The position numbers and the translations under genes were made by a program. From Candidatus Berkiella sp. (GTDB lineage: Bacteria; Pseudomonadota; Gammaproteobacteria; Berkiellales; Berkiellaceae), in assembly GCA_050247135.1 (NCBI GenBank), contig JBFWUT010000002.1, positions 61,850 to 125,849 of the forward strand: DNA of 64,000 nt, in the 5' to 3' direction. Below are positions 27,853 to 51,096 of the stretch, piece by piece. The notes below the pieces were generated by a model. The model made no database searches, had not been told where the DNA came from, and was given only the letters and a program-made list of their open reading frames with translations. The number at the start of each line of letters is the position of its first letter. Positions within the stretch are counted from its first letter, which is position 1.

Positions 27853-28576
27853 CCTCTTTTTGTGGTTACCCGCTTTTTTGGCGGGGCTGCTTGTGATGCT
27901 AACCCATGTCCCACTGGGGCAAAAAGTTTTGCAGCGTGGTGTGATCTTTCTTGATCTGGCCATTGCCCAGGCTGCTGGGCTGGGTGTGATCATTGCTTAC
28001 GGGCTTGAACTCAATACCCATGGTTTTGCATTGCAGTTAATTGCTTTGTTAAGCGCTGTACTGATGGCACTGTTTTTTCAATTCTTAGACAAAAAGCAAA
28101 ATGCCCATTTGGAAGCGTGGATCGGTTGTAGTTTTGTGATCACCGCCAGTATCGGCTTATGGATTTTATCAGGCAGCGCTCATGCAGCAGAGCATCTTCG
28201 CGAAATTCTGATGGGGCAGATCTTATGGGTAACGCCATCACAGCTTGTGACCACGCTATTTTATTATGCATTAGCAGCGCTGTTACTGGTTATTAACCGT
28301 AAAAGCTTTTATCTGTTGTTTGCCATTAGTATTACGGCAGCTGTACAACTTGTAGGGATTTACCTGGTATTTGCCACGTTGATTATGCCCGCTTTGGCTA
28401 CCTCGCATCTTAAGTCGAGGATCAGCAAATTAGGATTTGGCTATGGCTTGTGTTTGTTTGCTTATATCGTGGGGATTGTACTGTCTCAGCAGTTTGATGC
28501 ACCTGCAAGTCCTATGATTGTCTTAAGCATGGCACTTGGTACCGTCACGCTGTTAACCATTCGGAGTTTGAGATGA
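27839..28576 (+). CDS. znuB: metal ABC transporter permease (ABC-3/ZnuB family)
   Basis: 245 aa polytopic protein. N-terminus HVPLGQKVLQRGVIFLDLAIAQAAGLG is typical of ZnuB/MntB permeases. It overlaps the znuA end. Confidence 0.75.
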   Translation: MRMDNLFLWLPAFLAGLLVMLTHVPLGQKVLQRGVIFLDLAIAQAAGLGVIIAYGLELNTHGFALQLIALLSAVLMALFFQFLDKKQNAHLEAWIGCSFVITASIGLWILSGSAHAAEHLREILMGQILWVTPSQLVTTLFYYALAALLLVINRKSFYLLFAISITAAVQLVGIYLVFATLIMPALATSHLKSRISKLGFGYGLCLFAYIVGIVLSQQFDAPASPMIVLSMALGTVTLLTIRSLR

Positions 28577-29010
28577 GTTACAAAGTCCAACAGCGTTTAA
28601 AAAAGGCTGAAGCGGTGTGTCAGAAGCAAAATACAAAGCTAACCCCACTAAGAAGATCGCTATTGAGTAAGCTATATGAAAATACTAAACCGCTCACTGC
28701 TTATGATTTGTTACGGCTGATGCGTGAACAGCACCCCAAAATGGAAGCAATGTCGGTTTATCGGATTTTACATTTTTTGGAAAGCCAACATCTGGTGCAT
28801 CGTTTAAATAGTTGCCAAGCTTATGCTGCGTGCAGCATGCCAGAGCATGAACATCATGCGCAGTTAGTGGTTTGTGAAAAATGTCATCACTCTGAAGAAA
28901 TAGCCATGCGATCACTCAAGGAATCGATCGATTCTGCTCTAAAAGAACACTCCTTTTGTTTCTCAACTAAATCGATTGAAATCTTTGGCATCTGCCAAAG
29001 CTGCGCCTAG
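28573..29010 (+). CDS. zur: Fur-family transcriptional regulator, probably Zur
   Basis: Winged-helix region TPLRRSLLSKLYENTKPLTAYDLLRLM...SVYRILHFLESQHLVHRL, then metal-site Cys/His residues (CSMPEHEHHAQLVVCEKCHH...CQSCA). It sits inside a zinc-uptake operon and overlaps znuB by 4 nt. Confidence 0.75.
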   Translation: MSYKVQQRLKKAEAVCQKQNTKLTPLRRSLLSKLYENTKPLTAYDLLRLMREQHPKMEAMSVYRILHFLESQHLVHRLNSCQAYAACSMPEHEHHAQLVVCEKCHHSEEIAMRSLKESIDSALKEHSFCFSTKSIEIFGICQSCA

Positions 29011-29800: not shown

Positions 29801-29834
29801 CAAAAGGCACCTTGTTAACAAGGTGCTTTTTTAT
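29801..29834. terminator. bidirectional rho-independent terminator between convergent genes
   Basis: 8 bp stem GCACCTTG/CAAGGTGC with loop TTAA (29807-29826). An A-tract on the left and a T-tract (TTTTTTATTTG) on the right. Confidence 0.75.
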
Positions 29835-30991
29835 TTGCGTTCTTGTCTTTCAATCCGCTTTAACGGCTCTTCAGTCTCTTTAATCAGATGATCTAAATCC
29901 GAAATCACATTGGCCATTTCAGGCAGTGCTTTTTGCCGAAAATTGCTGATATCATCGATGGCGCTCTTTAAGTCGTTTAAAGCCGATTTCAAGGCATTCA
30001 CATCGATTTGTGCCGAAGCGGCCCCTTTATGGATTTGGGTACCTTGGGTTTTTAACCGCGCAGCGCTATCGGCAATTAATTTGGCCGTGGTCTCATTAAT
30101 CTTATCAATCTTTTGTAACACTTTTTCTTGATTCGCCAGCGCTAGCGCAATGGTCGTGGCATTTCTTAAGGCGGTAATGGTCACATTCAGAGCTCGATTT
30201 ACCCCGCGCACTAATTCTTTGTTATTACGAATAATTAATTCCGTCGCAATAATCGATTGCTGGGTGACAGCCACTTGTTGCTGTAAATCAATCACGCGCT
30301 GGCGAATGGGGAATAACATATATTCATCGACCACTTTGGCTTGATTGGGATCGGTGTTTTTTAGCTCTTTGCTTTTTTGATCGAGTTTTTGATCCACGCT
30401 ATTAGCAAATACCAAGGTTTTTTCTAATTCTTCACCGGTGTGCCACAACTGTTTTTGATCTTCAGCCAAGGTAATGTTGTCACGTAGTAATTGATCGCGT
30501 CCAGCTTCAAGAGAATGCACTATGGCATCGATCACCGTTTGTGCACTTTCAAAGCGGGTGATATAGCGTTTAATAGATGAACCCACACCGGGAATATAAC
30601 CTAAAAGGCGTGAAAACCAGCCTGGTGAAAAATTCACTTTTTCAGGGTCTAGCGATTCTACCGTCATTTTTAAATCGATTAACGCATTAGCAACCTCGCC
30701 CCCATCTTCAGCGCGGCGCGATAAGGTGGCAATCGGTTGCTTTAACATGCCCATTTGCTGGGCTGATTTTTTCTGCAAATCGGTGCCAATTTCTTCGACT
30801 TTATTCACTGATAGTTGTTGGCTTTCAATTTTGCTTAAATCGTTTGCCAACAGTGCACCCACAAATTGATCGGCGCTTAAGATAATTTGTTGCTGCTCAC
30901 TGCCTGGCACACGATCTTTTAGCAACAGTTCTTGTTGGACTTCTTGACTTGACGCTGGTTTCAATTGGGTTGAATTGTCATTGTCTTGCAT
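29831..30991 (-). CDS. TelA/KlaB-like toxic anion resistance protein (YaaN-like)
   Basis: 386 aa. Coiled-coil rich, with TelA-family-like segments (…LDPEKVNFSPGWFSRLLGYIPGVGSSIKRYITRFESAQTVIDAIVHSLEAGRDQLLRDNITL…). It sits downstream of an XpaC-like gene, as in the Bacillus xpaC-yaaN pair. Confidence 0.55.
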   Translation of the reverse strand: MQDNDNSTQLKPASSQEVQQELLLKDRVPGSEQQQIILSADQFVGALLANDLSKIESQQLSVNKVEEIGTDLQKKSAQQMGMLKQPIATLSRRAEDGGEVANALIDLKMTVESLDPEKVNFSPGWFSRLLGYIPGVGSSIKRYITRFESAQTVIDAIVHSLEAGRDQLLRDNITLAEDQKQLWHTGEELEKTLVFANSVDQKLDQKSKELKNTDPNQAKVVDEYMLFPIRQRVIDLQQQVAVTQQSIIATELIIRNNKELVRGVNRALNVTITALRNATTIALALANQEKVLQKIDKINETTAKLIADSAARLKTQGTQIHKGAASAQIDVNALKSALNDLKSAIDDISNFRQKALPEMANVISDLDHLIKETEEPLKRIERQERK

Positions 30992-30999
30992 GGCTCATC

Positions 31000-31590
31000 C
31001 TAATACAGTTTTGCGCGATCGGTCATTGTTTTTAAGTTATCTACTAAGAAGTCAGTTGTTTGCTTATCCGGACCTGAAAGATTCTTAATATCAGATAAAT
31101 TCGTTATTAGCTCGTTGAGTTTATCTAACAAGCTTTGATTCGATGACAATAAATTCTCAATTCGTTCCGCCAGTTTTTGTTTTTCGAGCGCTTCTTCTTC
31201 AGCAACCTGATCCAGCGCTTCTAATAATGGGATCATTTTGCTAAGGTTATCCGTTAGCACGGCATTCGTTTCAATCAGCGTTTTTTCATAACGGGCATAG
31301 GTTAATTCATCGACCTTGAATTTTTGCTTTAACACCGTAAAGCTTAACTTAGCCACTTCACGAGTTCTGGCAAATTGCTCGCTTGCGCGCTTGCCAAATA
31401 CTCCTATGTTTTCGAGATATTTGCACCAGGTCACTTTGGGCTCTAAGCGCAGTAACGGTAGCAAATTCGTATCTTCTAGGGATAACACTGGCACCAAAGC
31501 ACGTTGGCGTCTTCGAATAGCCACGTAGCCAGCCAAGCCTGCTAAAGCAACAGCAGCAGTAATCACAATTTCAATCAACAAAATAGCCAT
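31000..31590 (-). CDS. XpaC-like membrane-anchored coiled-coil protein (5-bromo-4-chloroindolyl phosphate hydrolysis protein family)
   Basis: 196 aa. N-terminal TM (MAILLIEIVITAAVALAGLAGYVAIRRRQR), then coiled coil. It sits directly upstream of the telA-like gene. Confidence 0.4.
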   Translation of the reverse strand: MAILLIEIVITAAVALAGLAGYVAIRRRQRALVPVLSLEDTNLLPLLRLEPKVTWCKYLENIGVFGKRASEQFARTREVAKLSFTVLKQKFKVDELTYARYEKTLIETNAVLTDNLSKMIPLLEALDQVAEEEALEKQKLAERIENLLSSNQSLLDKLNELITNLSDIKNLSGPDKQTTDFLVDNLKTMTDRAKLY

Positions 31591-31673
31591 CCGGGTCGAA
31601 TAGTGTTGTAGCCTAAATACTGAATATCATATTATAGGCTTTCTTCTATTAATATACATTCATCATAGGTTTT

Positions 31674-32327
31674 ATGACTTGGCAAAAATGGCTGACCCTT
31701 GGGCCCAACACTATCAAAAGTAGCGAAAGCGAACCTAACTATATCAGTTGGAATACTGATATAGAGTCTTGGAATGCCCAAAGCACGCTCATGGTTGAAG
31801 ACGGCCAACTGGCCATGCTGCTGGTGAATCAAGCCATTGTAGCCATCTTAGAAAAAGGGACGTTCCCGTTAGATTGGGTGTTAGATGATAACTTGCTAAA
31901 CACAGCCTCCTCTTTAAAAGCCTATTATTTTTCCAGAAAAACCTTTTCGAATCTGCGCTGGGGTACGCCTGCGCCTATTATCGTGAACGATACGGCGATT
32001 GGCATGAAATCACTACGCGCCCATGGTGTGTTTTCTTTTAAGCTCGATAACCCTAAACGCTTATGGCAACATGTGCCCAATGATTATAAAAGTTTTACCA
32101 CAGATGATATCGGCGTACCGCTTCGAGCGATGATCTTAGATGAGTTCACCGCCAAAGTGAGTGCTAATCAAAATAATATTTTGCAGTTTCTTGAAAAGCG
32201 CCAGGCTTTTTCAGCAGAAATCAAAAAAGCACTCGCACCCCATTTTCTCAATTATGGGCTAGAACTGGTGGATTTTATTGTACAAAGTATTTCAGCACCT
32301 GATAATCAAGGAAGCAAGGACATTTAA
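31674..32327 (+). CDS. SPFH/Band-7-like protein (Band_7_1 / YdjI-like 'virion core protein' family)
   Basis: The N-terminal pattern ISWNTDIESWNAQSTLMVEDGQLAMLLVNQAIVAILEKGTFPLDWVLDDNLL matches the conserved IEW..D....L..r.P....i..Ga.L.V.egQ.A.f...G N-terminus of YdjI-type SPFH proteins. 217 aa. Confidence 0.55.
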   Translation: MTWQKWLTLGPNTIKSSESEPNYISWNTDIESWNAQSTLMVEDGQLAMLLVNQAIVAILEKGTFPLDWVLDDNLLNTASSLKAYYFSRKTFSNLRWGTPAPIIVNDTAIGMKSLRAHGVFSFKLDNPKRLWQHVPNDYKSFTTDDIGVPLRAMILDEFTAKVSANQNNILQFLEKRQAFSAEIKKALAPHFLNYGLELVDFIVQSISAPDNQGSKDI

Positions 32328-32954
32328 ATGGCATTATCATGCCCTGCTTGTGGTGGGGAATTAGAATTTAAAAGCCGCTTTAGTGCCATGAGCATTTGTC
32401 CTTATTGCCAATCTATTTTACTCAAAAAAGACGATCTCTGGCTGCAACAAGGCAAAATGGCCGTGTTACCCACCGATATGTCCCCTTTTCAAGTTGGCAC
32501 GCAGGGTATTTTTCAGAAACAATCTTTTGAGATGATTGGCAAATTAAAAGTCGCTTGGGAAAATGGTTTCTGGAATGAGTGGTATATTATCGAGCAAGAT
32601 GGTACAGCTGCTTGGCTGGCTGAAGCCATGGGTTTTTTAAGTTATTCCCACGAAATGGAATTAAACGATCCCCTCAATGATCCTCTCTTTTATCAGGTCG
32701 GCCAAGCTATAACCTTAAATAACAACACTTATACGATTAACGATATTAAAGAATTCGAATGCATTGGCTGCATCGGTGAATTACCCATGGAATTCACTCA
32801 AGGGATGAAAGGGGTTTCTATTGATTTAGTCACCACCGATGATAACTGCGCTTATTTAGAATATTCAAACAATGTGTATCGTTTCTTTAAAGGTAAAAAC
32901 GTCGACTTTGATACCCTAAAACTTGAGAATTTGCGAGCCCTCGATGGCTGGTAA
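32328..32954 (+). CDS. DUF4178-like protein with N-terminal zinc ribbon (YdjH-like)
   Basis: MALSCPACGGELEFKSRFSAMSICPYCQSIL, a C-x2-C...C-x2-C zinc ribbon, then a beta-rich domain. It is paralogous to the N-terminus of the next ORF. Confidence 0.5.
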   Translation: MALSCPACGGELEFKSRFSAMSICPYCQSILLKKDDLWLQQGKMAVLPTDMSPFQVGTQGIFQKQSFEMIGKLKVAWENGFWNEWYIIEQDGTAAWLAEAMGFLSYSHEMELNDPLNDPLFYQVGQAITLNNNTYTINDIKEFECIGCIGELPMEFTQGMKGVSIDLVTTDDNCAYLEYSNNVYRFFKGKNVDFDTLKLENLRALDGW

Positions 32955-34254
32955 GTATCTTCATCCCGAACACAACGCCACACCACCCTCCGTCGAGCAA
33001 ATCGCCTGTGTCAAATGCGGTGGTGCGTTAACGCTGCGGGCTAAGGGTTATTCCACCACCGTTATTTGCCCTTATTGCAATGCGCTTTATAAAGTCACCG
33101 CGCATGGGCTTGAAATTGAGGGCATGTCTCTCTCGCAACACCAACGTCAAATCGAACCTTTAATCCCATTAGGTACGCGTGGTAAATTGCATGGCGCCAC
33201 CTGGGAAGTGATTGGCTTCATGCAACGGCGCTCATCGCTCAATGTAACCTGGCAAGAATATCTACTATTTAATCCTTATAAAGGTTTTCGCTGGCTCACC
33301 GAATGTTTGGGACACTGGAACTATGTCTTGGCTATCCATGATGTGCCTAAACCCTTATTGGGCGATAGCATGTCGTACCTTGATCAAAAATATGTTTTTT
33401 ACTCCACTTACTACGCAGCTGTGCTGTATGTGATTGGCGAATTTTATTGGCGTGTCAAAGCCAATGACACTTGCTCGATTAGTGATTATGTCGCAGGCCC
33501 TAACATCCTCTCTAAAGAAAAACAAGAAAGTGAAGAGATCTGGTCTTTAGCGGAATATATTGAACCTGAAACGGTTAAAGCGGCTTTTAATTTGAACACC
33601 ATGCCCGCGAAAGTAGGGGCAACCATTAACCAACCGTTTAAGCAAAGCAAAGAATTATCTGCCTTGATTACCTCTGGCGTCATTGGCTGTATTTTAGTGG
33701 CGGTGGTCGGTTTATTTATACTGATTGGTTCACGGCATACTCCCCTGGTTTATGGTGAGCTTACCGCCAAGATTGAGCAAAAGGCGCAGTCGCTCGCTTT
33801 ACCACCTCCTTTAACAGTACCAGAAGTCAAAAACGAAATAACGACGCCCAGCTTTGAGATTACCGATGATAATGCTTTTCTGAGTTTTTCACTGCAAGCC
33901 CCTGTCAATAATAATTGGGTCGATGTGGATGCCACATTGATTAATGAACAAACCGGTAAAGCATTATATTTTTCCAATGGCCTTGAATTTTATTCGGGTT
34001 ATGATTCTGATGGTTATTGGAGTGAGGGAAAAAAAGAAGATTCCATCGTACTTTCTGCCCTACCTAAAGGCAAGTATCATTTAGTCTTTGAGGCCACCAC
34101 CAATGATCCCAATGGTATCACCGTCAAGTATCAATTTAAGCAAGGTGCTTTTAACTCAAACAATTACTTTTTTTCACTTTTTTTAATGCTTCTACCCACG
34201 GCGTTTGGACTGGCTTATTATTTTTATTTTAACTATCAACGAGAGATCTCATAA
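32944..34254 (+). CDS. DUF4178-like zinc-ribbon protein with a TM segment and C-terminal extracytoplasmic domain (435 aa)
   Basis: Zinc ribbon CVKCGGALTLRAKGYSTTVICPYCNALY. A TM at about residue 240 (LITSGVIGCILVAVVGLFILIG) and a second hydrophobic segment at the C-terminus. The ATG at 32944 overlaps the previous stop by 8 nt (the ORF-track start at 32923 is a TTG). Confidence 0.5.
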   Translation: MAGKYLHPEHNATPPSVEQIACVKCGGALTLRAKGYSTTVICPYCNALYKVTAHGLEIEGMSLSQHQRQIEPLIPLGTRGKLHGATWEVIGFMQRRSSLNVTWQEYLLFNPYKGFRWLTECLGHWNYVLAIHDVPKPLLGDSMSYLDQKYVFYSTYYAAVLYVIGEFYWRVKANDTCSISDYVAGPNILSKEKQESEEIWSLAEYIEPETVKAAFNLNTMPAKVGATINQPFKQSKELSALITSGVIGCILVAVVGLFILIGSRHTPLVYGELTAKIEQKAQSLALPPPLTVPEVKNEITTPSFEITDDNAFLSFSLQAPVNNNWVDVDATLINEQTGKALYFSNGLEFYSGYDSDGYWSEGKKEDSIVLSALPKGKYHLVFEATTNDPNGITVKYQFKQGAFNSNNYFFSLFLMLLPTAFGLAYYFYFNYQREIS

Positions 34255-34260
34255 ACACTG

Positions 34261-34428
34261 ATGAAATGGTTTCGTAATAAAGGGCTCCTTTTTGGCATTG
34301 CTTACAGTCTGGCGGTGTTTAGCTGGTTTTCTTATACCACTCTACACGGCATCGACATGATGGTTTTTGCGAAATCCTCTGCTAGCTGGAGCGCTAAAGG
34401 CATTCAACATTCTGCAACTCATAAATAA
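34261..34428 (+). CDS. candidate small membrane protein (55 aa; below the ORF-track cutoff)
   Basis: An ATG 7 nt after the previous stop. My translation is MKWFRNKGLLFGIAYSLAVFSWFSYTTLHGIDMMVFAKSSASWSAKGIQHSATHK, with one hydrophobic helix. Confidence 0.3.
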   Translation: MKWFRNKGLLFGIAYSLAVFSWFSYTTLHGIDMMVFAKSSASWSAKGIQHSATHK

Positions 34429-34440
34429 GGATTTAACAAC

Positions 34441-34668
34441 ATGGCAACTGTCGCTGCTTGGATCAACTTACACCCGCTGGTGAATTCCGTCATTTACTCA
34501 GTCGTTGGTTTTGTGATGCTGGGCTTGGGTTTTTATGTATATGACAAGCTCACACCTTGGCGGATGTGGAAAGAAATTATTGATGAACATAACATTGCTC
34601 TGGCTGTGATTGTGGGTGCTATGGTCTTGGGTATTTCTAATATTATTGCTGCAGCTATTGCAGGTTAA
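34441..34668 (+). CDS. DUF350-family small membrane protein (YjfL-like)
   Basis: 75 aa with two TM segments. C-terminal motif GAMVLGISNIIAAAIAG is typical of DUF350. Confidence 0.65.
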   Translation: MATVAAWINLHPLVNSVIYSVVGFVMLGLGFYVYDKLTPWRMWKEIIDEHNIALAVIVGAMVLGISNIIAAAIAG

Positions 34669-34669
34669 T

Positions 34670-36169
34670 ATGGCACTGTTGTTGTTATTTTCTGTTTTTG
34701 TTGTTTCAACCTGCGGTTTGATCTATGAATTGATATGTGGCACCTTAGCCAGCTACCTATTGGGAGATTCGGTTACCCAATTCTCAACGATTATTGGTGT
34801 CTACTTGTTTTCAATGGGTGTCGGCTCCTATTTTTCAAAATTTATTGATAAAAAACTGGTTGAGACCTTTATTCAAATTGAACTCATAATCGGGATCTTG
34901 GGTGGGTTTTCAGCACTGGGTTTGTTTGTTGCTTTTGAGTTTGTTTCACACTTTAAGCCACTACTCTATTTTATTGTTTTTTTAATTGGCACCTGCGTAG
35001 GGTTAGAGATCCCGCTCATGATGCGAATTTTAAAAGAGCACTATACCGATTTTAAAGATCTGGTTTCTAAAGTATTCACCTTCGATTATATCGGTGCGCT
35101 GCTGGCTTCCTTACTCTTTCCATTACTACTTGTGCCTCATTTGGGCTTGGTGCGCTCTGCGCTGCTGTTTGGTGTCATTAATACTGGGGTAGGCGTGCTT
35201 GCTATTCGATCTTTTAACCATCAGATCAAGAAGCCACACTTGTTATATAGCAAAGCTATCGCTTGCTTATTGGTCTTATCGGTGGGTTTTGTATTTTCAC
35301 ATAGGCTCACGACTTTTGCTGAAGCTCGCAATTATGAGGGTAAAATCCTTTACAGCAAATCCACTAAATACCAACGCATCGTATTAACCCGAACCGATAA
35401 CGACATCCGATTGTTTCTCAATGGCAACTTACAATTTAGCTCAAGAGATGAATATCGTTATCATGAAGCACTGGTCCACTTAGGATTGTCACAGATTGAA
35501 AACCCTAAAAAAGTCTTGGTGCTAGGTGGTGGCGATGGCTTGGCGGTGCGCGAGATCTTAAAATACCCATCGATAGAGCAAATCACACTGGTTGATTTAG
35601 ATCCGGCCATGACCCAGCTGTTTCGCCAAGTCCCGATGCTCGTCACCTTAAATGAAAAATCATTGCTCTCTAATAAAGTTACGGTAATCAATGAAGATGC
35701 CTTTTTATGGCTGCGAAGCAATCAGCAACAATTTGACTTTGTGGTCATCGATTTTCCCGATCCGTCAAATTTCTCCCTCGGCAAGCTGTATACCAATACG
35801 TTTTATCGCCATTTGTTTGCAGCCTTAAATAACAAGGGCATGGCGGTAGTGCAATCGACTTCCCCTTTTGTGGCACGTAAAAGCTACTGGTGCATAGCCA
35901 ATACCTTAGAAAGCGTCGGTTTTTATGTGAAGCCTTATTTAACGTATGTGCCCGCTTTTGGTTTGTGGGGGTTTCACTTGGTTGCCAAGTCGATCCCCTC
36001 TGAGCGCTATCATTTACCTAAGCCTTTAAAATACCTAAGCCAAGATGTCATCCCCAGTTTATTTGAGATCCCTTGTGATTTAGCTCATCTTAACACCGAT
36101 GTGAATGCTTTAAACAACCAAGCACTGGTTCGTTATTTTGAAGACGAATGGCAGCGTTATGTCGGATGA
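34670..36169 (+). CDS. membrane-anchored polyamine aminopropyltransferase (spermidine/spermine synthase family)
   Basis: About 7 N-terminal TM helices, then the PABS catalytic domain (VLVLGGGDGLAVREIL...VDLDP...VIDFPDP). The ATG at 34670 lies 2 nt after the DUF350 stop; the ORF-track start at 34610 is a TTG that overlaps the DUF350 gene. Confidence 0.8.
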   Translation: MALLLLFSVFVVSTCGLIYELICGTLASYLLGDSVTQFSTIIGVYLFSMGVGSYFSKFIDKKLVETFIQIELIIGILGGFSALGLFVAFEFVSHFKPLLYFIVFLIGTCVGLEIPLMMRILKEHYTDFKDLVSKVFTFDYIGALLASLLFPLLLVPHLGLVRSALLFGVINTGVGVLAIRSFNHQIKKPHLLYSKAIACLLVLSVGFVFSHRLTTFAEARNYEGKILYSKSTKYQRIVLTRTDNDIRLFLNGNLQFSSRDEYRYHEALVHLGLSQIENPKKVLVLGGGDGLAVREILKYPSIEQITLVDLDPAMTQLFRQVPMLVTLNEKSLLSNKVTVINEDAFLWLRSNQQQFDFVVIDFPDPSNFSLGKLYTNTFYRHLFAALNNKGMAVVQSTSPFVARKSYWCIANTLESVGFYVKPYLTYVPAFGLWGFHLVAKSIPSERYHLPKPLKYLSQDVIPSLFEIPCDLAHLNTDVNALNNQALVRYFEDEWQRYVG

Positions 36170-37778
36170 TTTTTTACTACGCCGTCGTTTGATTAAGGGC
36201 ATAGGGATCGCCGGTCTTAGCGCTCTGGCATGGCCCTTAGTAAAATATATTTACCCGCAGCAACACCCTGCTATCACGCAAGCCGGTACGACACCCGCGC
36301 TGGCGCATCAAATCCGTGATCCGCATTTTCCACCCATTAGCCAACATGAGCGCACCCAAGTGGCCATTATTGGCAGCGGTGTGGCAGGCTTAAGTGCGGC
36401 ACGCCAGTTACAGTTAAAGGGTTTGACGGATTTTCGCGTATTAGAGCTCGAAACGATGATTGGCGGCAATGCCGCCAGTGGACACAATAGCATAAGCGCT
36501 TATCCATGGGGTGCGCATTATCTACCCGTGCCAGGATCAGATAGTGATTTTCTGTACCCTTTTTTGCAAGAAGCCAACGTGATCACAGGCTTTAATGAGC
36601 AAGGTAATCCATATTATAACGAATTATTTCTATGTCATGATTTGCATGAACGGCTTTATCTCAATGGCTCCTGGCAAGAAGGCTTGGTCCCTTTACAAGG
36701 TATTAGTGCAAAAGATAAAGAAGAGATCACGCAATTTTTTGCACTGATGACGCGTTTCAAACACACTAAAGGCCAGGATGACCGTTATGCTTTTACTATC
36801 CCCGTTGAAGCTTCATCGAGTGACCCCACTTTTGTGCGCTTTGATCAAATAACCATGGCGGAATACTTAAATGAGTTGGGTCTTTATTCACCTTATCTTC
36901 GTTGGTATGTGAATTACTGTTGCCGAGATGATTTTGGCGGAGGCATTGATAAGGTATCGGCCTGGGCTGGGATCCATTATTTTGCCTCAAGGCGTGCTTG
37001 CCTAGCGAATGATATGGATGATGCCATTTTAGTCTGGCCGCAAGGCAACGGTTTTTTGGTTGATCATTTAGCACAGCCCTTTATGGATCGCATTCAAACC
37101 CAATCTCTTGTTTATCAAGTTGTGCCTCACGCCAATCAAATGGCTGTCCATTACTTTGATGCGAAAACTCAAACTTCAGTCGAGTTACTAGCAGAGCAAG
37201 TCATTATGGCCATTCCACGCTTTGTGGCCCATAAAATTTGTCACCCTGACTTCCAAGATGCTTTTCAGGACATCCAAAAATTGGACTATGCGCCTTGGTT
37301 AGTCGCTAATATCAGTTTAAAAGCGCTACCTGTTAGCAAAGGGGCTGATCTCGCCTGGGATAATGTGTCGTATTACAGCCGTTCTTTAGGCTACATCCAT
37401 GCTAATCATCAGTCTTTGAGTGGTCATCGTGGCGAAAGCGTGATCACTTACTATTTGCCGCTTGATCATTTACCGCCTCGTGAAGCAAGACAACAAGCCT
37501 TAGCGAGAACAACGCAAGAATGGCACCAGCTGATCGTCAATGATCTTGAAACTATGCACGAGGACATACGATCTCTGATACAGGACATCCAAATTCGTGT
37601 CTTAGGTCATGGCATGATTTGCCCAACGCCGCATATGATTTCTTCGACCGTCAAACAAATCAAACGATCACAAGGCAGGTTATTTTTTGCTCATTCGGAT
37701 ATGAGCGGACTTTCACTGTTTGAGGAAGCCTATTGGCAGGGCTTACAAACAGCCAATAGACTGCTAGCGTCAGTCTAG
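36159..37778 (+). CDS. Tat-exported FAD-dependent amine oxidase (polyamine oxidase-like)
   Basis: Twin-arginine signal MSDDFLLRRRLIKGIGIAGLSALAWP. FAD dinucleotide-binding motif VAIIGSGVAGLSAARQL...ELETMIGGNA. The ATG at 36159 overlaps the upstream stop by 11 nt. It contains two in-frame copies of the CAGGACATCCAAA motif. Confidence 0.75.
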   Translation: MSDDFLLRRRLIKGIGIAGLSALAWPLVKYIYPQQHPAITQAGTTPALAHQIRDPHFPPISQHERTQVAIIGSGVAGLSAARQLQLKGLTDFRVLELETMIGGNAASGHNSISAYPWGAHYLPVPGSDSDFLYPFLQEANVITGFNEQGNPYYNELFLCHDLHERLYLNGSWQEGLVPLQGISAKDKEEITQFFALMTRFKHTKGQDDRYAFTIPVEASSSDPTFVRFDQITMAEYLNELGLYSPYLRWYVNYCCRDDFGGGIDKVSAWAGIHYFASRRACLANDMDDAILVWPQGNGFLVDHLAQPFMDRIQTQSLVYQVVPHANQMAVHYFDAKTQTSVELLAEQVIMAIPRFVAHKICHPDFQDAFQDIQKLDYAPWLVANISLKALPVSKGADLAWDNVSYYSRSLGYIHANHQSLSGHRGESVITYYLPLDHLPPREARQQALARTTQEWHQLIVNDLETMHEDIRSLIQDIQIRVLGHGMICPTPHMISSTVKQIKRSQGRLFFAHSDMSGLSLFEEAYWQGLQTANRLLASV

Positions 37779-37784
37779 ATGCAA

Positions 37785-37804
37785 AATAAGTTAATTAACT
37801 TATT
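37785..37804. promoter_or_regulatory. perfect 20 bp AT-rich palindrome AATAAGTTAATTAACTTATT
   Basis: Directly observed: the first 10 nt are the reverse complement of the last 10. It lies 7 nt after the amine oxidase stop and about 80 nt upstream of the next ORF. Confidence 0.4.
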
Positions 37805-37883: not shown

Positions 37884-39230
37884 ATGCCAGGCATCAATGA
37901 TAAAACCCTCACTATTGAACGGATCACCTGCGCAAACGAGCGTTCAGAAAATGATCGTGAGATTATTTCTGTCGCAGGTATGCCCTTTTATCAATCCACA
38001 GGCCAGAACTCAGCCTACACTAACACCTGGTTTCCCTTTTTTGGCATCGAACAAACCAATAGGGTCGGAGCCTATCCTCGTGGCTGGTTTATCAAATCCT
38101 TTGTGACCGATTTACCTAAATCCATCACTGACAAAATGGATGAGCTTTTTCCCTCTTATGGCGGCTTGAATGCGGGACGTGAGCTGCAACTGCGTTTTTG
38201 GAATATCCCTAGCTTGCTCTTTTCCTCAACGATCGGTGGCGGCTTATGGATTTCTGAAAAGGGCAGGGAATTCAAAACCTTTTTGAATAAAGAGTTTCCT
38301 GAATATTATCAACAGATCCCCAAGCTTGAAATAATGCCTTCATCGCAATCACTCATTGAGCCTGAACCTATCAATCAATGGTTATGTGAGAAAGCGGGAT
38401 TGGTCGATTATAAAAACCTAATGGAGCCCTTTCCCAAAACGGTTGATGACTTTTTAAAGAAGATCGCTGTGTTGGCAAAAAAACCGACAGAGCCTGCCTT
38501 TGTACCTCCGATCCCTATGTTGCGCGATCCCATAAAGGAGCTTCCTCGCTATGTGGGACCTATTCTAGATCAGCAAGCTATACCTGCTATACCTAAAGCA
38601 CTGGCAAAAAAGACGACCCAAAAAACGTCACCCAAAGCCTCTGCTAAAGTGACCATTAAACAAGTTGCTAGAAAAGCGGCGCCTAAACAGCCAGCTCCTA
38701 AAAAGGTGCGAATAGCTTCACTTGACACCCAAAATGGCAAACGACTTTTTGAAGCAAGATATCAGTTGCGCTCTATGGGACTGTGCCCAGCCCCTAAAAG
38801 AACCGATAGCGAAAAGCCCTTACAGCGGTTTTTGAAAAAACATCCCGAGCGCAAATTAGTCACAGCCCCAGCGCCTGTGAAAACCCCACTGCCTGCAGCA
38901 ACTCAACCTGAACGCCAATTATTTTCTGGCGTTGCTTTATCGTTAGGTATTCTGACTGCAGCGGTCTATTTGGCTTACGGGTTCTCACCTATGATGGCTT
39001 TAGGCCTTGGTTTCATTTGCTATGCTGGTACGGTGGCTCTGCAATTTTTGCCAACGCAAAAAGAAGCTGCTATCAAAGCACCTTCTCCTGATGCAACGAT
39101 GCCAAAAGAAACGCCGGATCCTTCGGCTAAAGTGTGGCTGCCCTCACAAAATAAAAGCAAAAAAGCGCTGGCACAAAATGCCGACCCATCACCACTTAAA
39201 AGCATTTTAAAAACCCGGATGGGTCTTTAA
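37884..39230 (+). CDS. hypothetical protein (448 aa) with K/P-rich low-complexity middle and C-terminal TM pair
   Basis: KASAKVTIKQVARKAAPKQPAPKK repeats, then a C-terminal hydrophobic hairpin (GVALSLGILTAAVYLAYGFSPMMALGLGFICYAGTVAL). Its 3' end overlaps the convergent DUF924 gene by 24 nt. Confidence 0.45.
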   Translation: MPGINDKTLTIERITCANERSENDREIISVAGMPFYQSTGQNSAYTNTWFPFFGIEQTNRVGAYPRGWFIKSFVTDLPKSITDKMDELFPSYGGLNAGRELQLRFWNIPSLLFSSTIGGGLWISEKGREFKTFLNKEFPEYYQQIPKLEIMPSSQSLIEPEPINQWLCEKAGLVDYKNLMEPFPKTVDDFLKKIAVLAKKPTEPAFVPPIPMLRDPIKELPRYVGPILDQQAIPAIPKALAKKTTQKTSPKASAKVTIKQVARKAAPKQPAPKKVRIASLDTQNGKRLFEARYQLRSMGLCPAPKRTDSEKPLQRFLKKHPERKLVTAPAPVKTPLPAATQPERQLFSGVALSLGILTAAVYLAYGFSPMMALGLGFICYAGTVALQFLPTQKEAAIKAPSPDATMPKETPDPSAKVWLPSQNKSKKALAQNADPSPLKSILKTRMGL

Positions 39231-42869: not shown

Positions 42870-44075
42870 ATGCACAAGAGTGGTATATTTTTTGGAAACT
42901 GTTTATTGAATTGCTACAATAACCTTATGCTTAACCTTCCTCCCATTCCTTCGCCACCACGTTTTGACAGCATAGCGATCGATAGCATCCGTTCAGGAAA
43001 CATTCAGCAAGCACTTTTCGCTATCGGTCGTTTAACCGCATCTGACAATATTGAAGCCGTCTATCAAGCACTATCCGCACATCATCATCCCGATCTGTGG
43101 GCTGCTTTTTTGCAGAACAGAAATATTCAAGATCCGTTATTAAGCATAAAAAATGCACTATACAAAAATTGTCATAGCTATCAGGAAAATTATTTTGTTG
43201 CTAAACATTGGGGTGATGTTGCATGGCAAATTGCAACCATCTCCAGCGTAGAACCAGGATACGCATTTAGAGACATTTTTGACGATCTATTACAATCCAC
43301 CGATAAGCGTTTATGGTTTGCATTTATTCACAACCCAGCCATTAGTCTTGCCTTAAAGAATACGCAATACTATACCCTTGTCGAAAAACTGATAGTCTAT
43401 GTTAACACTCAGGTCCCCCTCGACACCGACTGGGTGATTTTACTAATGCTTTATTTGCTCAAGGGTTACCCTTTAAATTATACGGAAAGTTTACTGCAAT
43501 TCACTCAACATTTTTCGTTGATGTTAGATTATGCTTTGTTGAAAATTTTTCAACCTCACGATCAACCCCACTCTAAAGAAACGCGCACTGAAATAGTCTA
43601 TTGGTTGCGTTTTATTATCAAAACATCACTCGCCAATGCTGAAATGAATGTGCTCACACGCAGCAAAGAGCAATTAAAAGCCGAGCTTCCTGCATTGCTT
43701 CAATATCTTGGTTCAAAATTAACCTATGATTTTTTGCAAATTTTTCCTGAATGCTTTCCTACTGCGTTAGATCACATTCATGCACAACTCCTAAACAACA
43801 AGAATTCAGCTGCTTATCGTGGGAGCGTAAGCTTAATTAAGTTATTGGCTACAGATGAAAAATTTTGCCACCTTATCACCACTGACTCAGCGTGTCATGA
43901 AGCACTGACTTCAAACCTGCCCCCCCCTGTGACTCCCGTGCGAAGGGAATCGCATCGGCCGTTTGTACCTGCCTTTGTTACTTATCAGCAGCAAACATCA
44001 ACGACTTCAACCATCGTTGATGCTTTTGCAGAAGTGGTTGATGAACCTGCCGATGCAGCCCAGCTTACATTTTAA
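42870..44075 (+). CDS. hypothetical protein (~400 aa), effector-like
   Basis: No motif. The ORF-track start at 42846 is a TTG inside a REP-like motif. The first ATG is at 42870, and another ATG at 42927 is an alternative start. Confidence 0.45.
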   Translation: MHKSGIFFGNCLLNCYNNLMLNLPPIPSPPRFDSIAIDSIRSGNIQQALFAIGRLTASDNIEAVYQALSAHHHPDLWAAFLQNRNIQDPLLSIKNALYKNCHSYQENYFVAKHWGDVAWQIATISSVEPGYAFRDIFDDLLQSTDKRLWFAFIHNPAISLALKNTQYYTLVEKLIVYVNTQVPLDTDWVILLMLYLLKGYPLNYTESLLQFTQHFSLMLDYALLKIFQPHDQPHSKETRTEIVYWLRFIIKTSLANAEMNVLTRSKEQLKAELPALLQYLGSKLTYDFLQIFPECFPTALDHIHAQLLNNKNSAAYRGSVSLIKLLATDEKFCHLITTDSACHEALTSNLPPPVTPVRRESHRPFVPAFVTYQQQTSTTSTIVDAFAEVVDEPADAAQLTF

Positions 44076-45255
44076 GGACTCTGGACGCATTTAAAGAATT
44101 GGCAATTTGATCAAGCACTTTAACTGCAACTGGGTTTTTATGAGGAACCACTTTACCTAGCGGCTCTTGCATCCGTTCTCGCATAGGTGTAATGGGGCGC
44201 GGAGGTGCCTTTTTGCCAATTGGAGGACTCGTTACTTCTTTGAATTCGGTGATTGTCGTAGGGAATCCATATTCTTCTAATTGTTGCAGTATTTTTGGAT
44301 CATACTTCCCAACCGTTAATTCAGGATGGTTTTGATGGAAGTAACACATTACGCTGTATTGCCCTGATTCAAAAAGAGCGTCCTTTTGTGCTTGCGTTAG
44401 ATCAAAATCTAAGGTTCCGACTTCTAAAGTGGTAGCAAAAATAGTATGACTCTTATAGGGACTCGAAAAGAAATTATAATCTTGTGCATTGGTAGCAGCA
44501 CCAAATTGAGCAGCCAGCGATTGAAATATGTTTTTGGGTCGCTTACGGGGTGGCTTAATACCTTTTTCATAATAATTAATTTCATTTTGATGATCTAAAC
44601 GAATGCTCAGTGTCTGAGGATTGTATTCCCCAGGATTTTTTTCAAATACTTCGGAAGGGCAATTTCGTTGCGTGCCCCCATCAAAAAATAAAGTGTCTTT
44701 GATTTCAAAAGGCGTAAAAAAGATGGGGAACTTCATTGAAGCAAAGATGGCATCCGCAATAGGCACTTCGGCATGTTCGCCTAAATGAGAAAATGTCTCA
44801 TTATAACCAGTCTCAAGGTTACAAGCCTCAACAAATATATCTTTAAATTTGAGCTTTGGATTTTTTTCTTTTAGTGCATGCCATTGTCTAAAGGTTGTAT
44901 TAGGATCACCCTCAACACCATCAATCGTCGTCGCTTCTTTAATCAGTTCTTTAAACCAGGTGTAGAATGCTTTACCCTTGAAAGCACCAAATTTATTGTC
45001 AATATTGAAGGGCACTTTTGCTTTATCAATAATATTACCCATTGCCATGGTTTCAAAATCCATTTTTGAATAAATATCTTGGATTTTTTTAACAGGCCAG
45101 CCAGTGGCTAGCAATAATGCGGCAATGGCACCCACCGAGGCACCGGCAATGCAATCAATATTGGCTAATACCCCAAGTCTTTCCAGCTCAACTGCAGCCC
45201 CCATGTAAATGTGTCCTTTCGTGCCGCCACCTTCCAATGCTAAATTTTTATACAT
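44065..45255 (-). CDS. patatin-like phospholipase (VipD/Vpd-like)
   Basis: Oxyanion-hole motif GGGTKG and nucleophile elbow GASVG. The start was placed at the ATG at 45255 (MYKNLALEGGG), which has an SD (AAGGGA). The ORF-track start is at 45330. Confidence 0.8.
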   Translation of the reverse strand: MYKNLALEGGGTKGHIYMGAAVELERLGVLANIDCIAGASVGAIAALLLATGWPVKKIQDIYSKMDFETMAMGNIIDKAKVPFNIDNKFGAFKGKAFYTWFKELIKEATTIDGVEGDPNTTFRQWHALKEKNPKLKFKDIFVEACNLETGYNETFSHLGEHAEVPIADAIFASMKFPIFFTPFEIKDTLFFDGGTQRNCPSEVFEKNPGEYNPQTLSIRLDHQNEINYYEKGIKPPRKRPKNIFQSLAAQFGAATNAQDYNFFSSPYKSHTIFATTLEVGTLDFDLTQAQKDALFESGQYSVMCYFHQNHPELTVGKYDPKILQQLEEYGFPTTITEFKEVTSPPIGKKAPPRPITPMRERMQEPLGKVVPHKNPVAVKVLDQIANSLNASRVLKM

Positions 45256-45466
45256 GTCTTTTCCCTTGACCCATGACCAAACTTGCTCAAGTATAGTGAG
45301 GCATTTGAGCATTATCATCTGGTTAAACATTCAGAAGTGAAAATCTTTAGCGCAACAAGCTTAGGGCCAATAAATCTCCGTAGACAAGTGAGGATAAACG
45401 ATTTAAAAATTGAATCTTTCACTCTCAGAAACACTCCTATAGATAATATAAATAGGAGTAAACCCA

Positions 45467-45807: not shown

Positions 45808-46737
45808 ATGCCTAATCGAAAAAAGATCACTAAAAAATCTAAAGATAAAAAACCTGATAAAATGCGATCAGGTGATGTTCGCTCGATTTGGCGCGGCTAT
45901 ATCACTTTTGGATTAGTGAATATTCCTGTTGTGCTTTACTCAGCTGAAAAGCCACAACAGGAAATTCATTTTAAACTTCTTGATAAAAAAAACCATGCCG
46001 GTATCCGTTATGCCAGAATCAATGAGGAAACAGGCAAAGAAGTACCTTGGCATGACATTGTCAAAGGTTATGAATATGAACCGGGTAATTATGCAATATT
46101 AAATGCCGATGATCTTAATGAAATTGCCAGAGAGAACCTTAAAGCCATCGAAATAGAGGATTTTATTGATCTTGATGAATTGGAAACACTCTACTTTGAA
46201 AAACCCTATTATCTTCTACCTGATAAGCGGGGGGATAAAGGCTATGTACTACTAAGAGAAACATTAAAAAACACCAACAAAGTGGGGATCGCTCGCGTGA
46301 TGGTGCGCTCACATCAATATCTTGCCGCCGTGATGGCTCTAGACAATGCCATTATTATCAATACAATGCGATATCCTCAAGAGATCAAACAACCTTCAGA
46401 GCTAAATGTACCCGATGATGCTATCTCAAATTATAAAATTAGTAAAAAGGAATTTGATATCGCCAAGCAATTAGTCGAAACCATGACCGTTAAATGGGAT
46501 CCAAAACGCTATTCCAATGAATATCGAGAAGATCTCTTAAAACTTATCGATGAAAAAATTGCCTCTGGCGGCAAAAAGGCCGTTAAGCATATTGAAGAGA
46601 CCGATATAAAACAAACCAATGTGGTCGATTTCATGGAATTGCTCAAAAAAAGCGTTAAGTCTCGTCAATCGCCTAAAGCAGACAAACCTAAAAAAGGCAA
46701 AGGCAAGTCAACATCACCTAAATCTAAAAAGCATTGA
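45808..46737 (+). CDS. ku: Ku protein (non-homologous end joining)
   Basis: Ku core RSIWRGYITFGLVNIPVVLYSA...IRYARINEETGKEVPW. A K-rich C-terminal tail, typical of bacterial Ku. Confidence 0.85.
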   Translation: MPNRKKITKKSKDKKPDKMRSGDVRSIWRGYITFGLVNIPVVLYSAEKPQQEIHFKLLDKKNHAGIRYARINEETGKEVPWHDIVKGYEYEPGNYAILNADDLNEIARENLKAIEIEDFIDLDELETLYFEKPYYLLPDKRGDKGYVLLRETLKNTNKVGIARVMVRSHQYLAAVMALDNAIIINTMRYPQEIKQPSELNVPDDAISNYKISKKEFDIAKQLVETMTVKWDPKRYSNEYREDLLKLIDEKIASGGKKAVKHIEETDIKQTNVVDFMELLKKSVKSRQSPKADKPKKGKGKSTSPKSKKH

Positions 46738-49707: not shown

Positions 49708-51096
49708 ATGTTGACACAATTCCACCCATTCCCCGAGTTGAGTACCGAATTAAAACTAAGGATAATCGAAGAATTGGTTTCTGATATCGATTTTCCCAAA
49801 TCATTGCTGTCCTTTAGTTTGACATCACAACATCAGCGTGTGCTTGCTCATGATTGGAGCCTTTGGCGTTTAGCCATCGAGCGCTTTTTCCCTGCCGTGC
49901 CAACCTATAAAAAAGCCGCTTATCTAAATGATTCGTTTGCTTTGTTTCAATCCCTTTTCCGGACGCTTCAACCTCTTTTGGTGGCGCACCACTTAACATT
50001 TTCTGATTTCATCAAAGTGGTTATTGAACAACAAGCGATACTTGATGAACGCCAGCTTGAGGTGATACTCGGCTTATTACTGGCAGCAGGACACCCCCTT
50101 TTAAAAGGAACAACGCTCAATCCTACTATTGCTGAACATGCCTTATTATTTGCCACTGTCTTAGGTAACAGCGAATTAGTGGATACGCTACTGTCAGAGC
50201 GTAAATTTCACATCTGTAAAACCGTTGTGTGCCAAGCTTTATTGGATGCCGCCAGATTAAATCACCCATTTATCTTAGGCTCGCTGTTAACCAACATGAA
50301 TCATCTGTTAGATGGTACAACCTTACGCAATGCATTAACCTCTGCTGCCTCAAAAGGCCACACTCGAATTGTTGCCCAATTCTTACAACACCCTTTCTTA
50401 AGAGTGGTCTCTTTTACCCTTAAAAAAGTCGTGCATATCGCTATTTTACATGGTTACCCTGATATCTTGTCTTTAATTCTGCGTGGCGACGATACTCACC
50501 GCTATGCTTGTGACATTCGTACTGGGGCGATAGAAGCCGCGCAAAACGGCTCCGTTGCTGGCATCGAAAAAGCTTTTCAATTAGCTAGCGCCCAATTTGA
50601 TGATGTGACCATTCGCAAACTACTTAAGGTAGCAGCTCAGCGAGGTAACCTTGTTTTAACCCAGTTGTTTGTTGCAACACCCGCCGTGTTGCGTCACCCC
50701 AATGCTCTATTAGAATCCTTGCAATTAGCGTTACATGAGGGGCACGAGAGTACTGCTTTATTATTGTTACAATCAGGAAGAGCCATATTAAAGCCGTTCG
50801 TTAAACGTGAGCTTTATTTAGAAGCCGTAAAAAAAGGCTTTAATTCTTTAATTGACGAACTCAACGACCATGGTCATCTCAAAGTCGATGGTTCCTTTTA
50901 TCAAACAGCTGTTAACCTTGCCAAAATTTATGATAAAGAAGACACTATCGAACATTTAACAGCTGCGATGTCGCAATTGACTGTCGAAGAAGTGTCCAGG
51001 CCCATTACGCCATCATTTGCAAGACATTCATCGCCCTATCGTTCTCAATCTCTGGCTGATACTACTCAGGATTGTCGTCGAGGATTCGTCTTATGA
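49708..51096 (+). CDS. F-box domain plus degenerate ankyrin-repeat protein (eukaryotic-like, AnkB/LegU-type effector candidate)
   Basis: The N-terminus FPELSTELKLRIIEELVSDIDFPKSLLSFSLTSQHQRVLAHDWSLWR fits the F-box pattern (LP.E....I...L....L.....VC..W..L..D..LW). At least 6 ankyrin-like helix-turn-helix repeats follow (ALLDAARLNHPFILGSLL, LTSAASKGHTRIVAQFLQH, HIAILHGYPDILSLILRG...). Confidence 0.6.
   Translation: MLTQFHPFPELSTELKLRIIEELVSDIDFPKSLLSFSLTSQHQRVLAHDWSLWRLAIERFFPAVPTYKKAAYLNDSFALFQSLFRTLQPLLVAHHLTFSDFIKVVIEQQAILDERQLEVILGLLLAAGHPLLKGTTLNPTIAEHALLFATVLGNSELVDTLLSERKFHICKTVVCQALLDAARLNHPFILGSLLTNMNHLLDGTTLRNALTSAASKGHTRIVAQFLQHPFLRVVSFTLKKVVHIAILHGYPDILSLILRGDDTHRYACDIRTGAIEAAQNGSVAGIEKAFQLASAQFDDVTIRKLLKVAAQRGNLVLTQLFVATPAVLRHPNALLESLQLALHEGHESTALLLLQSGRAILKPFVKRELYLEAVKKGFNSLIDELNDHGHLKVDGSFYQTAVNLAKIYDKEDTIEHLTAAMSQLTVEEVSRPITPSFARHSSPYRSQSLADTTQDCRRGFVL

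Follow-up and report, generated by a model that had tools for sequence, protein, structure and literature searches.

A run of seven genes in a metagenome-assembled genome (MAG) of Candidatus Berkiella sp. represents, in this organism, an envelope cassette that is widespread and has been described before, but whose biochemistry is uncharacterised. The oxidase and the aminopropyltransferase that it encodes are 100 % identical to proteins of an NCBI MAG under the name Candidatus Berkiella sp. The DNA analysed, referred to here as the window, is 64,000 nt of contig JBFWUT010000002.1. In it, two minus-strand genes (29831–30991 and 31000–31590), encoding a TelA-family protein and a 196-aa protein, are divergent from seven plus-strand genes (31674–37778), which encode in order an SPFH/Band-7 protein, two DUF4178 proteins, a micro-protein, a DUF350 protein, an aminopropyltransferase of the spermidine synthase (SpeE) type with seven transmembrane (TM) helices, and a flavin adenine dinucleotide (FAD) amine oxidase. 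All nine genes listed in an earlier note on this DNA are present at the positions it gave, both as open reading frames (ORFs) and in an independent gene call on a public Logan contig of identical DNA, which has identical starts. Apart from XpaC, the families it had named were likewise supported by profile searches for TelA, Band_7_1, both DUF4178 proteins, DUF350, Spermine_synth and Amino_oxidase.

The same note had considered the locus to be a novel composite, fused from separate parts. It is instead one standard cassette, since the same set of genes is conserved across more than 10 phyla. Nor is the adjacency of these genes new to science, a variant without PspA having already been described (Ravi et al., 2024; PMC11237479, section 19). 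Literature searches on DUF4178, on Rv2597-2601 and on aminopropyltransferases combined with amine oxidases found no relevant later functional work. The host had been placed in the Legionellales; NCBI now puts Berkiella in Candidatus Berkiellales (Gammaproteobacteria).

Conservation of the cassette across bacteria

An alignment of oxidase homologs was used to scan one genome per species, and 80 loci were fetched with 10-kb flanks. With the window's own locus these make 81, in which ORFs were called and then searched with the window proteins. Relatives of the oxidase are encoded in at least 596 species. The 7-TM SpeE adjoins the oxidase in 77 of the 81 sampled loci, DUF350 is present in 71, DUF4178 (including the membrane form) in about 70, and a Band-7 gene in 23. 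The order is fixed: first Band-7 or S-adenosylmethionine decarboxylase (AdoMetDC), then one or two DUF4178 genes, the micro-ORF, DUF350, the 7-TM SpeE and finally the oxidase; DUF350 and DUF4178 are adjacent on the same strand, and the order is conserved in at least 70 loci. The comparison of gene neighbourhoods that the earlier note had proposed found this order again in dozens of genomes that are unrelated to one another, so the arrangement is beyond chance. The hosts include Bacteroidota, Melainabacteria, Nitrospirota, Verrucomicrobiota, Bdellovibrionota, Spirochaetota (Leptospiraceae) and Actinomycetota, as well as Alpha-, Beta- and Gammaproteobacteria, with Gemmatimonadota among the plasmid matches.

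Directly 3′ of the oxidase, 58 of the 81 loci encode a 364-aa polytopic membrane protein, which belongs to no Pfam family and carries several conserved His motifs (e.g. L034, 7620–8714; L065, 11702–12796). About 120 Ralstonia megaplasmid records carry the 7-TM SpeE and amine oxidase pair alone, without DUF350, DUF4178, Band-7 or micro-ORF (locus L089, R. solanacearum megaplasmid AP024098.1, 8908–12121 of the locus). Based on this bare pair, SpeE and the oxidase are the core of the cassette. A SpeE–oxidase locus without DUF350 is also found in Burkholderia stagnalis, and cassettes without the oxidase are found in Ensifer and Alteromonas.

Outside Berkiella, the nearest relatives of the SpeE fusion (59–63 % identity) are in Bdellovibrionota (Bacteriovorax, Bdellovibrionaceae, Pigmentibacter) and Leptospiraceae. 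A Bacteriovoracaceae MAG also has the layout with TelA, and all nine genes may thus have been transferred laterally as one block.

The distances between the seven plus-strand genes are, in order, 0, −11, +6, +12, +1 and −11 nt, which is nearly the spacing of 0–11 nt or overlap that had been claimed. From this spacing, the seven genes probably form one transcription unit. A scan of the locus for consensus promoters and terminators gave no excess over shuffled expectation and is uninformative on operon structure. The divergent intergenic region (31591–31673, 83 bp) presumably holds promoters for both units.

The absence of a PspA/IM30 gene, as claimed before, is supported across the 64-kb window: phmmer searches with E. 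coli PspA and YjfJ gave no match (E > 2), and PF04012 does not occur in the precomputed Pfam tables, which span approximately 5–61 kb of the window. A PspA hidden in the window is thereby ruled out. A classical Psp locus has a PF04012 gene in or beside it, and there is none here within the 64 kb.

The membrane aminopropyltransferase and the putatively exported oxidase

The SpeE-type enzyme (499 aa; 34670–36169, plus strand) scores 660 bits against NCBIfam NF002956 (PRK03612; cutoff 472) and matches Spermine_synth (PF01564, E 1e-40), whereas its score of 35 against NF037959 (‘fused MFS/spermidine synthase’) is below the cutoff of 40. In an AlphaFold2 (AF2) model (pLDDT 86), helices are at residues 2–31, 34–58, 63–91, 95–122, 128–158, 160–181 and 189–208, followed by a short linker helix and then the SpeE domain. 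There are therefore exactly seven TM helices ahead of the SpeE domain, in agreement with the earlier description. The TM domain is half of a fold like that of the major facilitator superfamily (MFS) plus one extra helix; no earlier report of this half-MFS nature was found. The motifs for catalysis and for binding of decarboxylated S-adenosylmethionine (dcSAM) are invariant (YRYHE, GGGDG, DLD and D361-x-P-D364-P). Likewise, E20, E71 and E113, which are within the TM helices, are invariant among the SpeE homologs, and invariant acids inside the membrane fit a cationic ligand.

Over 71 homologs, the mean number of Lys and Arg residues is 2.2, 2.4 and 2.6 in loops 2–3, 4–5 and 6–7, and 0.1, 0.9 and 1.0 in loops 1–2, 3–4 and 5–6. 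The 22 residues past TM7 are net negative. In MFS halves, loops 2–3 and 4–5 are cytoplasmic. Based on the positive-inside rule and this known topology, the N-terminus of the enzyme is probably cytoplasmic, in which case the seventh, odd helix would take the SpeE domain to the periplasm. The catalytic domain is thus predicted to lie on the periplasmic side, beside the putatively exported oxidase; no earlier report of this placement was found.

The amine oxidase (539 aa; 36159–37778, plus strand; PF01593, E 3e-11) starts with a twin-arginine signal, LRRRLIKG followed by the hydrophobic stretch GIGIAGLSALAWPLV. An RRxFLK-type motif is conserved in the family alignment (A1), in keeping with the twin-arginine enzyme described previously, and the names or annotations of family members P0070 and P0092 mark them as TAT signal proteins. 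Export by the twin-arginine translocation (Tat) pathway is therefore predicted from the sequence. Foldseek comparison of the AF2 model (pLDDT 87) gave TM-scores of 0.60–0.76 to monoamine oxidase (MAO), putrescine oxidase and SpdH, at 13–17 % identity; the oxidase has the fold of these enzymes.

In the mechanism proposed here, the half-MFS domains would pair as a homodimer and pass a cationic substrate, most likely dcSAM made by a cytoplasmic AdoMetDC, over the inner membrane to the periplasmic SpeE domain. The acceptor that this domain would aminopropylate is an amine, but not the bulk of free putrescine. The aminopropylated product would then be oxidised in the periplasm by the oxidase, and so either removed or converted. 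Membrane assembly or control would be the part of DUF350, the micro-protein with its C-terminal His-Lys, the SPFH protein and the two DUF4178 proteins, and the divergent pair of TelA and the 196-aa protein would fill the membrane-stress slot that is held by CesT-PspA in sister cassettes. As a whole this mechanism is tentative, its chances being put a little below even. Chemistry facing the periplasm is plausible because of the twin-arginine signal of the oxidase and the charge bias of SpeE over 71 homologs. Of the periplasm-facing polyamine synthesis and oxidation that had been suggested for this locus, the periplasmic side is thus retained; synthesis of polyamines by the SpeE fusion is doubtful, there being no AdoMetDC in the window.

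Several points weigh against the proposed mechanism. The predicted topology of SpeE has two sources, the positive-inside rule and fold homology, and to our knowledge no enzyme dependent on S-adenosylmethionine or dcSAM acts in the periplasm. The oxidase is just 13–17 % identical to characterised enzymes, and its substrate class is putative. AdoMetDC is neither in the window nor beside the cassette in any of three Berkiella loci. The function of this copy could be reduced, because the 364-aa membrane protein is absent and the Band-7 protein is truncated. In addition, the spacing of the genes is the whole of the case for a single transcript.

The topology also separates the proposed mechanism from synthesis in the cytoplasm followed by export, in which the SpeE domain would be inside and the N-terminus outside, a polyamine or an aminopropylated small molecule would be made, the MFS-like domain would export this product, and the periplasmic oxidase would degrade or recycle it. 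Both dcSAM and AdoMetDC are cytoplasmic, the AdoMetDC encoded in these clusters has no signal sequence, and an exporter would fit the MFS-like fold. However, the charge bias over 71 homologs is the opposite of that expected, approximately 7.2 Lys and Arg residues against 2.0, and the cytoplasmic location of loops 2–3 and 4–5 in MFS halves matches an N-terminus that is inside. Synthesis in the cytoplasm is accordingly rather unlikely, while being a serious alternative.

Accessory proteins and features of the Berkiella copy

In nearly every locus, the membrane DUF4178 gene and DUF350 are 150–250 nt apart, and an ORF of 43–90 aa is found in this gap. In the window this is a 55-aa micro-protein (34261–34428, plus strand; MKWFRNKGLLFGIAYSLAVFSWFSYTTLHGIDMMVFAKSSASWSAKGIQHSATHK), also found by the independent gene call, with one TM or signal-like helix, a Gly/Ser-rich tail and a C-terminal His-Lys. 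Just 5′ of DUF350, 63 of 71 loci have an ORF with an -HK ending, whereas only 0.41 % of all stop-to-stop segments of at least 25 aa end in this way. In these micro-proteins the N-terminus is basic, there is a single hydrophobic helix, the tail of 20–39 residues is rich in Gly and Ser, and the C-terminus has the form [FY]-[YH]-H-K, with Tyr at −3 in 38 of the 63. Their charge bias suggests that the N-terminus is inside and the C-terminus outside. Judged by these sequence features, the micro-ORF is a conserved gene, of which no earlier report was found. A gene listed for Shewanella in the same slot, ‘LipoSIG+Ctha_1186+Low-comp’ (PMC11237479), may or may not be related to it. The micro-ORF is not universal, being absent from the Ralstonia, Burkholderia stagnalis, Ensifer and Alteromonas loci.

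Its C-terminus raises the possibility of peptide modification, with the terminal Lys, or His-Lys, of the periplasmic tail as the acceptor; the SpeE domain would extend the Lys side chain to a spermidine-like one, which the oxidase would then remove or convert. The frequency of -HK endings 5′ of DUF350 and the outward orientation of the C-terminus are in favour of this. So is the sister DUF350 operon of E. coli, where the annotation of YjfC is that of a peptide-spermidine ligase (PMC11762307, citing Pederick et al., 2023) and the neighbouring YjfM is likewise Gly/Ser-rich at its C-terminus. On the other hand, SpeE–oxidase pairs exist without micro-ORF or DUF350 in Ralstonia and Burkholderia stagnalis, and the oxidase-less cassettes of Ensifer and Alteromonas also have no micro-ORF. 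Modification of the micro-protein is therefore quite improbable. A shade less probable again is the more specific version of the proposed mechanism, in which extracytoplasmic aminopropylation by way of the homodimeric half-MFS domain would act on an acceptor that is not a polyamine, the C-terminal Lys of the micro-protein being the best candidate, with the oxidase as eraser or processor.

Other roles were considered for the micro-protein. The E. coli lipoprotein Lpp also ends in an aromatic residue, a basic residue and Lys (KYRK), and a peptidoglycan tether was rejected, as the surroundings of the cassettes show no enrichment in L,D-transpeptidase genes, with one such gene at a single locus. 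A force-sensing arrest peptide of the MifM/SecM type is unlikely, because with a tail of only 20–39 residues the TM helix would still be within the ribosome tunnel at termination. The micro-ORF may act as a leader peptide that senses a small molecule.

The two DUF4178 proteins are paralogous, as had been proposed, and share an N-terminal CxxC...CxxC zinc ribbon. The soluble one (208 aa; 32328–32954, plus strand; PF13785, E 1e-7) has the ribbon at residues 5–28. The other (436 aa; 32944–34254, plus strand; PF13785, E 5e-18) spans the membrane, with two TM helices marked by hydropathy peaks at residues 244–262 and 409–427; the stretch of approximately 146 aa between them is predicted to be extracytoplasmic, and a sequence search with this protein against solved structures found no match. 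The short DUF350 protein (75 aa, two TM helices; 34441–34668, plus strand; PF03994, E 7e-16) matches E. coli YjfL with a phmmer E value of 8e-5.

The TelA-family protein (386 aa; 29831–30991, minus strand), the distal member of the divergent pair, matches PF05816 with E 4e-67 and 227 bits against a cutoff of 30; a sequence search against solved structures found no match. Its conserved partner (196 aa; 31000–31590, minus strand) has a single TM helix at the N-terminus and is helical towards the C-terminus. The same divergent layout is also present in a second Berkiella MAG (L002), in Ca. Berkiella aquae (L088), in a Bacteriovoracaceae MAG (L080) and in an unrelated metagenomic contig (L086), which supports the link between the cassette and the divergent pair that had been drawn before. 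The metagenomic contig was reached only by way of P0265, a remote relative of the 196-aa protein (E 2e-16), whose gene again precedes TelA and diverges from the cassette genes. On an Alteromonas mediterranea plasmid (NZ_CP018028.1; L090, 8911–15569 of the locus), TelA is encoded on the same strand inside an oxidase-less cassette with the order SpeE fusion, speD, a 169-aa protein, TelA, DUF4178, a 510-aa protein and a four-TM DUF350. Among the membrane-stress modules that are exchanged between these cassettes, TelA thus appears to be a further one, which may occupy the slot that is filled elsewhere by PspA. No earlier report of this recurrent association was found.

The 196-aa protein had been taken for XpaC-like. 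It has no Pfam match at E <= 1, PF10112 included, and ten distant relatives have none at E <= 0.01; with no match to PF10112 in either, an XpaC identity is without support at the sequence level. A full profile search puts the family at approximately 104 representatives at 50 % identity, whereas a word-index homolog search gave only 16 close relatives.

The Berkiella copy is a somewhat reduced but otherwise ordinary member of the family. A profile built from 41 cluster AdoMetDCs finds no AdoMetDC in the 64-kb window at E <= 10, and the 364-aa membrane protein is absent from the window and from two other Berkiella loci. An AdoMetDC gene is within 10 kb in only 6 of 23 Band-7-type loci. As most cassettes of this type in other phyla have none nearby either (17 of 23), the lack of a nearby AdoMetDC is not peculiar to Berkiella. 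The SPFH/Band_7_1 protein of the window (31674–32327, plus strand; PF13421, E 2.5e-25) is shortened to 217 aa, against a norm of approximately 330 aa. Alignment A4, in which it is set against orthologs of 251 and 328 aa, shows that a Gly/Ala-rich hydrophobic segment has been lost in all Berkiella copies and that the SHOCT domain has additionally been lost in the window copy. The typical ortholog matches Band_7_1 and SHOCT, and SHOCT is kept in Ca. Berkiella aquae.

That the cassette is a decaying remnant in an intracellular host, its original function gone with AdoMetDC, the 364-aa protein and SHOCT, would account for these losses, the first two of which extend to the window and two other Berkiella loci, but it is very improbable: all seven ORFs are intact with invariant catalytic motifs, orthologs in other Berkiella genomes are kept at 65–83 % identity, and 17 of 23 Band-7-type cassettes in other phyla have no nearby AdoMetDC either.

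If aminopropylation does take place in the periplasm, with the Lys of the micro-protein as acceptor, no dcSAM-dependent enzyme of the periplasm would precede this one, and the protein modification would be new. The cassette is present in hundreds of species, including the tractable Flavobacterium, Chitinophaga, Pedobacter, Novosphingobium, Bacteriovorax and Ralstonia, and the SpeE–oxidase pair of Ralstonia is a minimal system open to genetics. The leads from this analysis are a catalytic domain that, by prediction, a half-MFS scaffold holds on the periplasmic side, the His-Lys micro-protein and TelA in the PspA slot. The micro-protein, the recurrence of TelA, the half-MFS domain and the periplasmic prediction make the substrate of the enzyme experimentally approachable.

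Other genes in the window were recorded as side observations. A zinc-uptake cluster (ZnuA, an ABC-3 permease and a Fur-family regulator) is just upstream (26926–29010, plus strand); it is beside the TelA gene in Ca. Berkiella aquae as well (L088), so this synteny is kept. Directly 3′ of the oxidase, 37884–39230 (plus strand) encodes a 448-aa protein whose middle part is of low complexity and rich in Pro, Ala and Lys, and which ends with two TM helices; neither a Pfam match nor a relative in the fetched loci was found, and it is outside the conserved cassette. A non-homologous end-joining pair, Ku and LigD (LigD_N, ligase and Prim-Pol), is at 45808–49172 (plus strand). Three proteins, two with a patatin domain and one with faint ankyrin matches only, are encoded at 44065–45330 (minus strand), 49708–51096 (plus strand) and 55947–58685 (plus strand); of the two with a patatin domain, the one of 912 aa also gives faint ankyrin matches. 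Berkiella is an amoeba-associated intracellular bacterium, and eukaryote-like proteins of the patatin and ankyrin kind are common in such bacteria; those in the window are possible effectors. An anti-phage defence system was rejected, since PADLOC models gave no specific defence match, only a generic methyltransferase-fold match to mad2 and a weak match in the FAD-binding region.

Comparison with known systems

The divergent pair resembles the xpaC-yaaN (telA) arrangement of Bacillus, with which the earlier note had equated it, in that a TelA-family gene is preceded by one for a small membrane-anchored helical protein. As the 196-aa protein and its relatives do not match PF10112, the likeness is one of position and architecture only: the TelA partner stands, and membership of the XpaC family does not.

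The oxidase is comparable to SpdH of Pseudomonas aeruginosa (PDB 7D9F-J), a spermidine dehydrogenase that is exported by the Tat pathway and oxidises polyamine in the periplasm. The two have the flavin amine-oxidase fold in common, and their N-terminal regions, signal included, align in a profile search. In contrast, identity is only 13–14 %, and SpdH is a haem-containing enzyme that has no linkage to a SpeE fusion.

The fusion of MFS and spermidine synthase type studied by Li and co-workers in 2019 reportedly makes no spermidine; related fusions are reported to give no complementation, and another acceptor is said to have been proposed. It is reported to be a membrane-fused SpeE-like enzyme clustered with AdoMetDC and DUF350. 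The window has such an enzyme beside DUF350, with a TM domain that is likewise of MFS fold; in the window, however, the TM part is one MFS half plus a helix, and AdoMetDC is absent locally. The acceptor of membrane-fused spermidine-synthase-like enzymes has been a question since that year.

The yjfIJKLMC operon of E. coli, which likewise belongs to a membrane-stress context, also places DUF350 (YjfL) beside an enzyme that conjugates polyamines and a secreted protein whose tail is rich in Gly and Ser. The lipoprotein YjfM, encoded between yjfL and yjfC (L083), ends in the Gly/Ser/Arg-rich ...SRGGYGRSSSARGHWGG, reminiscent of the tails of the micro-proteins. YjfC is an ATP-grasp ligase, whereas the window enzyme is an aminopropyltransferase; the E. 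coli operon has a PspA paralog (YjfJ) and CesT, which the window does not, and lacks both an oxidase and DUF4178. The TM helices number four in YjfL and two in the window DUF350.

The closest counterparts are the operons of Ravi et al. (2024, mSystems, PMC11237479), in which a 7-TM spermine-synthase fusion, DUF350 and DUF4178 are joined to a CesT/Tir-PspA pair, and for which ‘aminopropylation of other substrates’ was suggested (sections 19–20). Those authors cite Li et al. (2019) for the gene linkages of AdoMetDC. Their PspA-less variant (section 19) has Band-7 with SHOCT, AdoMetDC and a polyamine oxidase. TelA is not mentioned in the main text of that paper, nor, apparently, is the His-Lys micro-protein. 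Compared with this variant, the window Band-7 protein has neither the two TM helices nor the SHOCT tail, there is no AdoMetDC in the operon or window, and the divergent TelA and 196-aa pair is attached. The window and the variant are nevertheless alike in the 7-TM SpeE fusion, DUF350, DUF4178, Band-7 in place of CesT/Tir-PspA, and a gene of the polyamine oxidase type.

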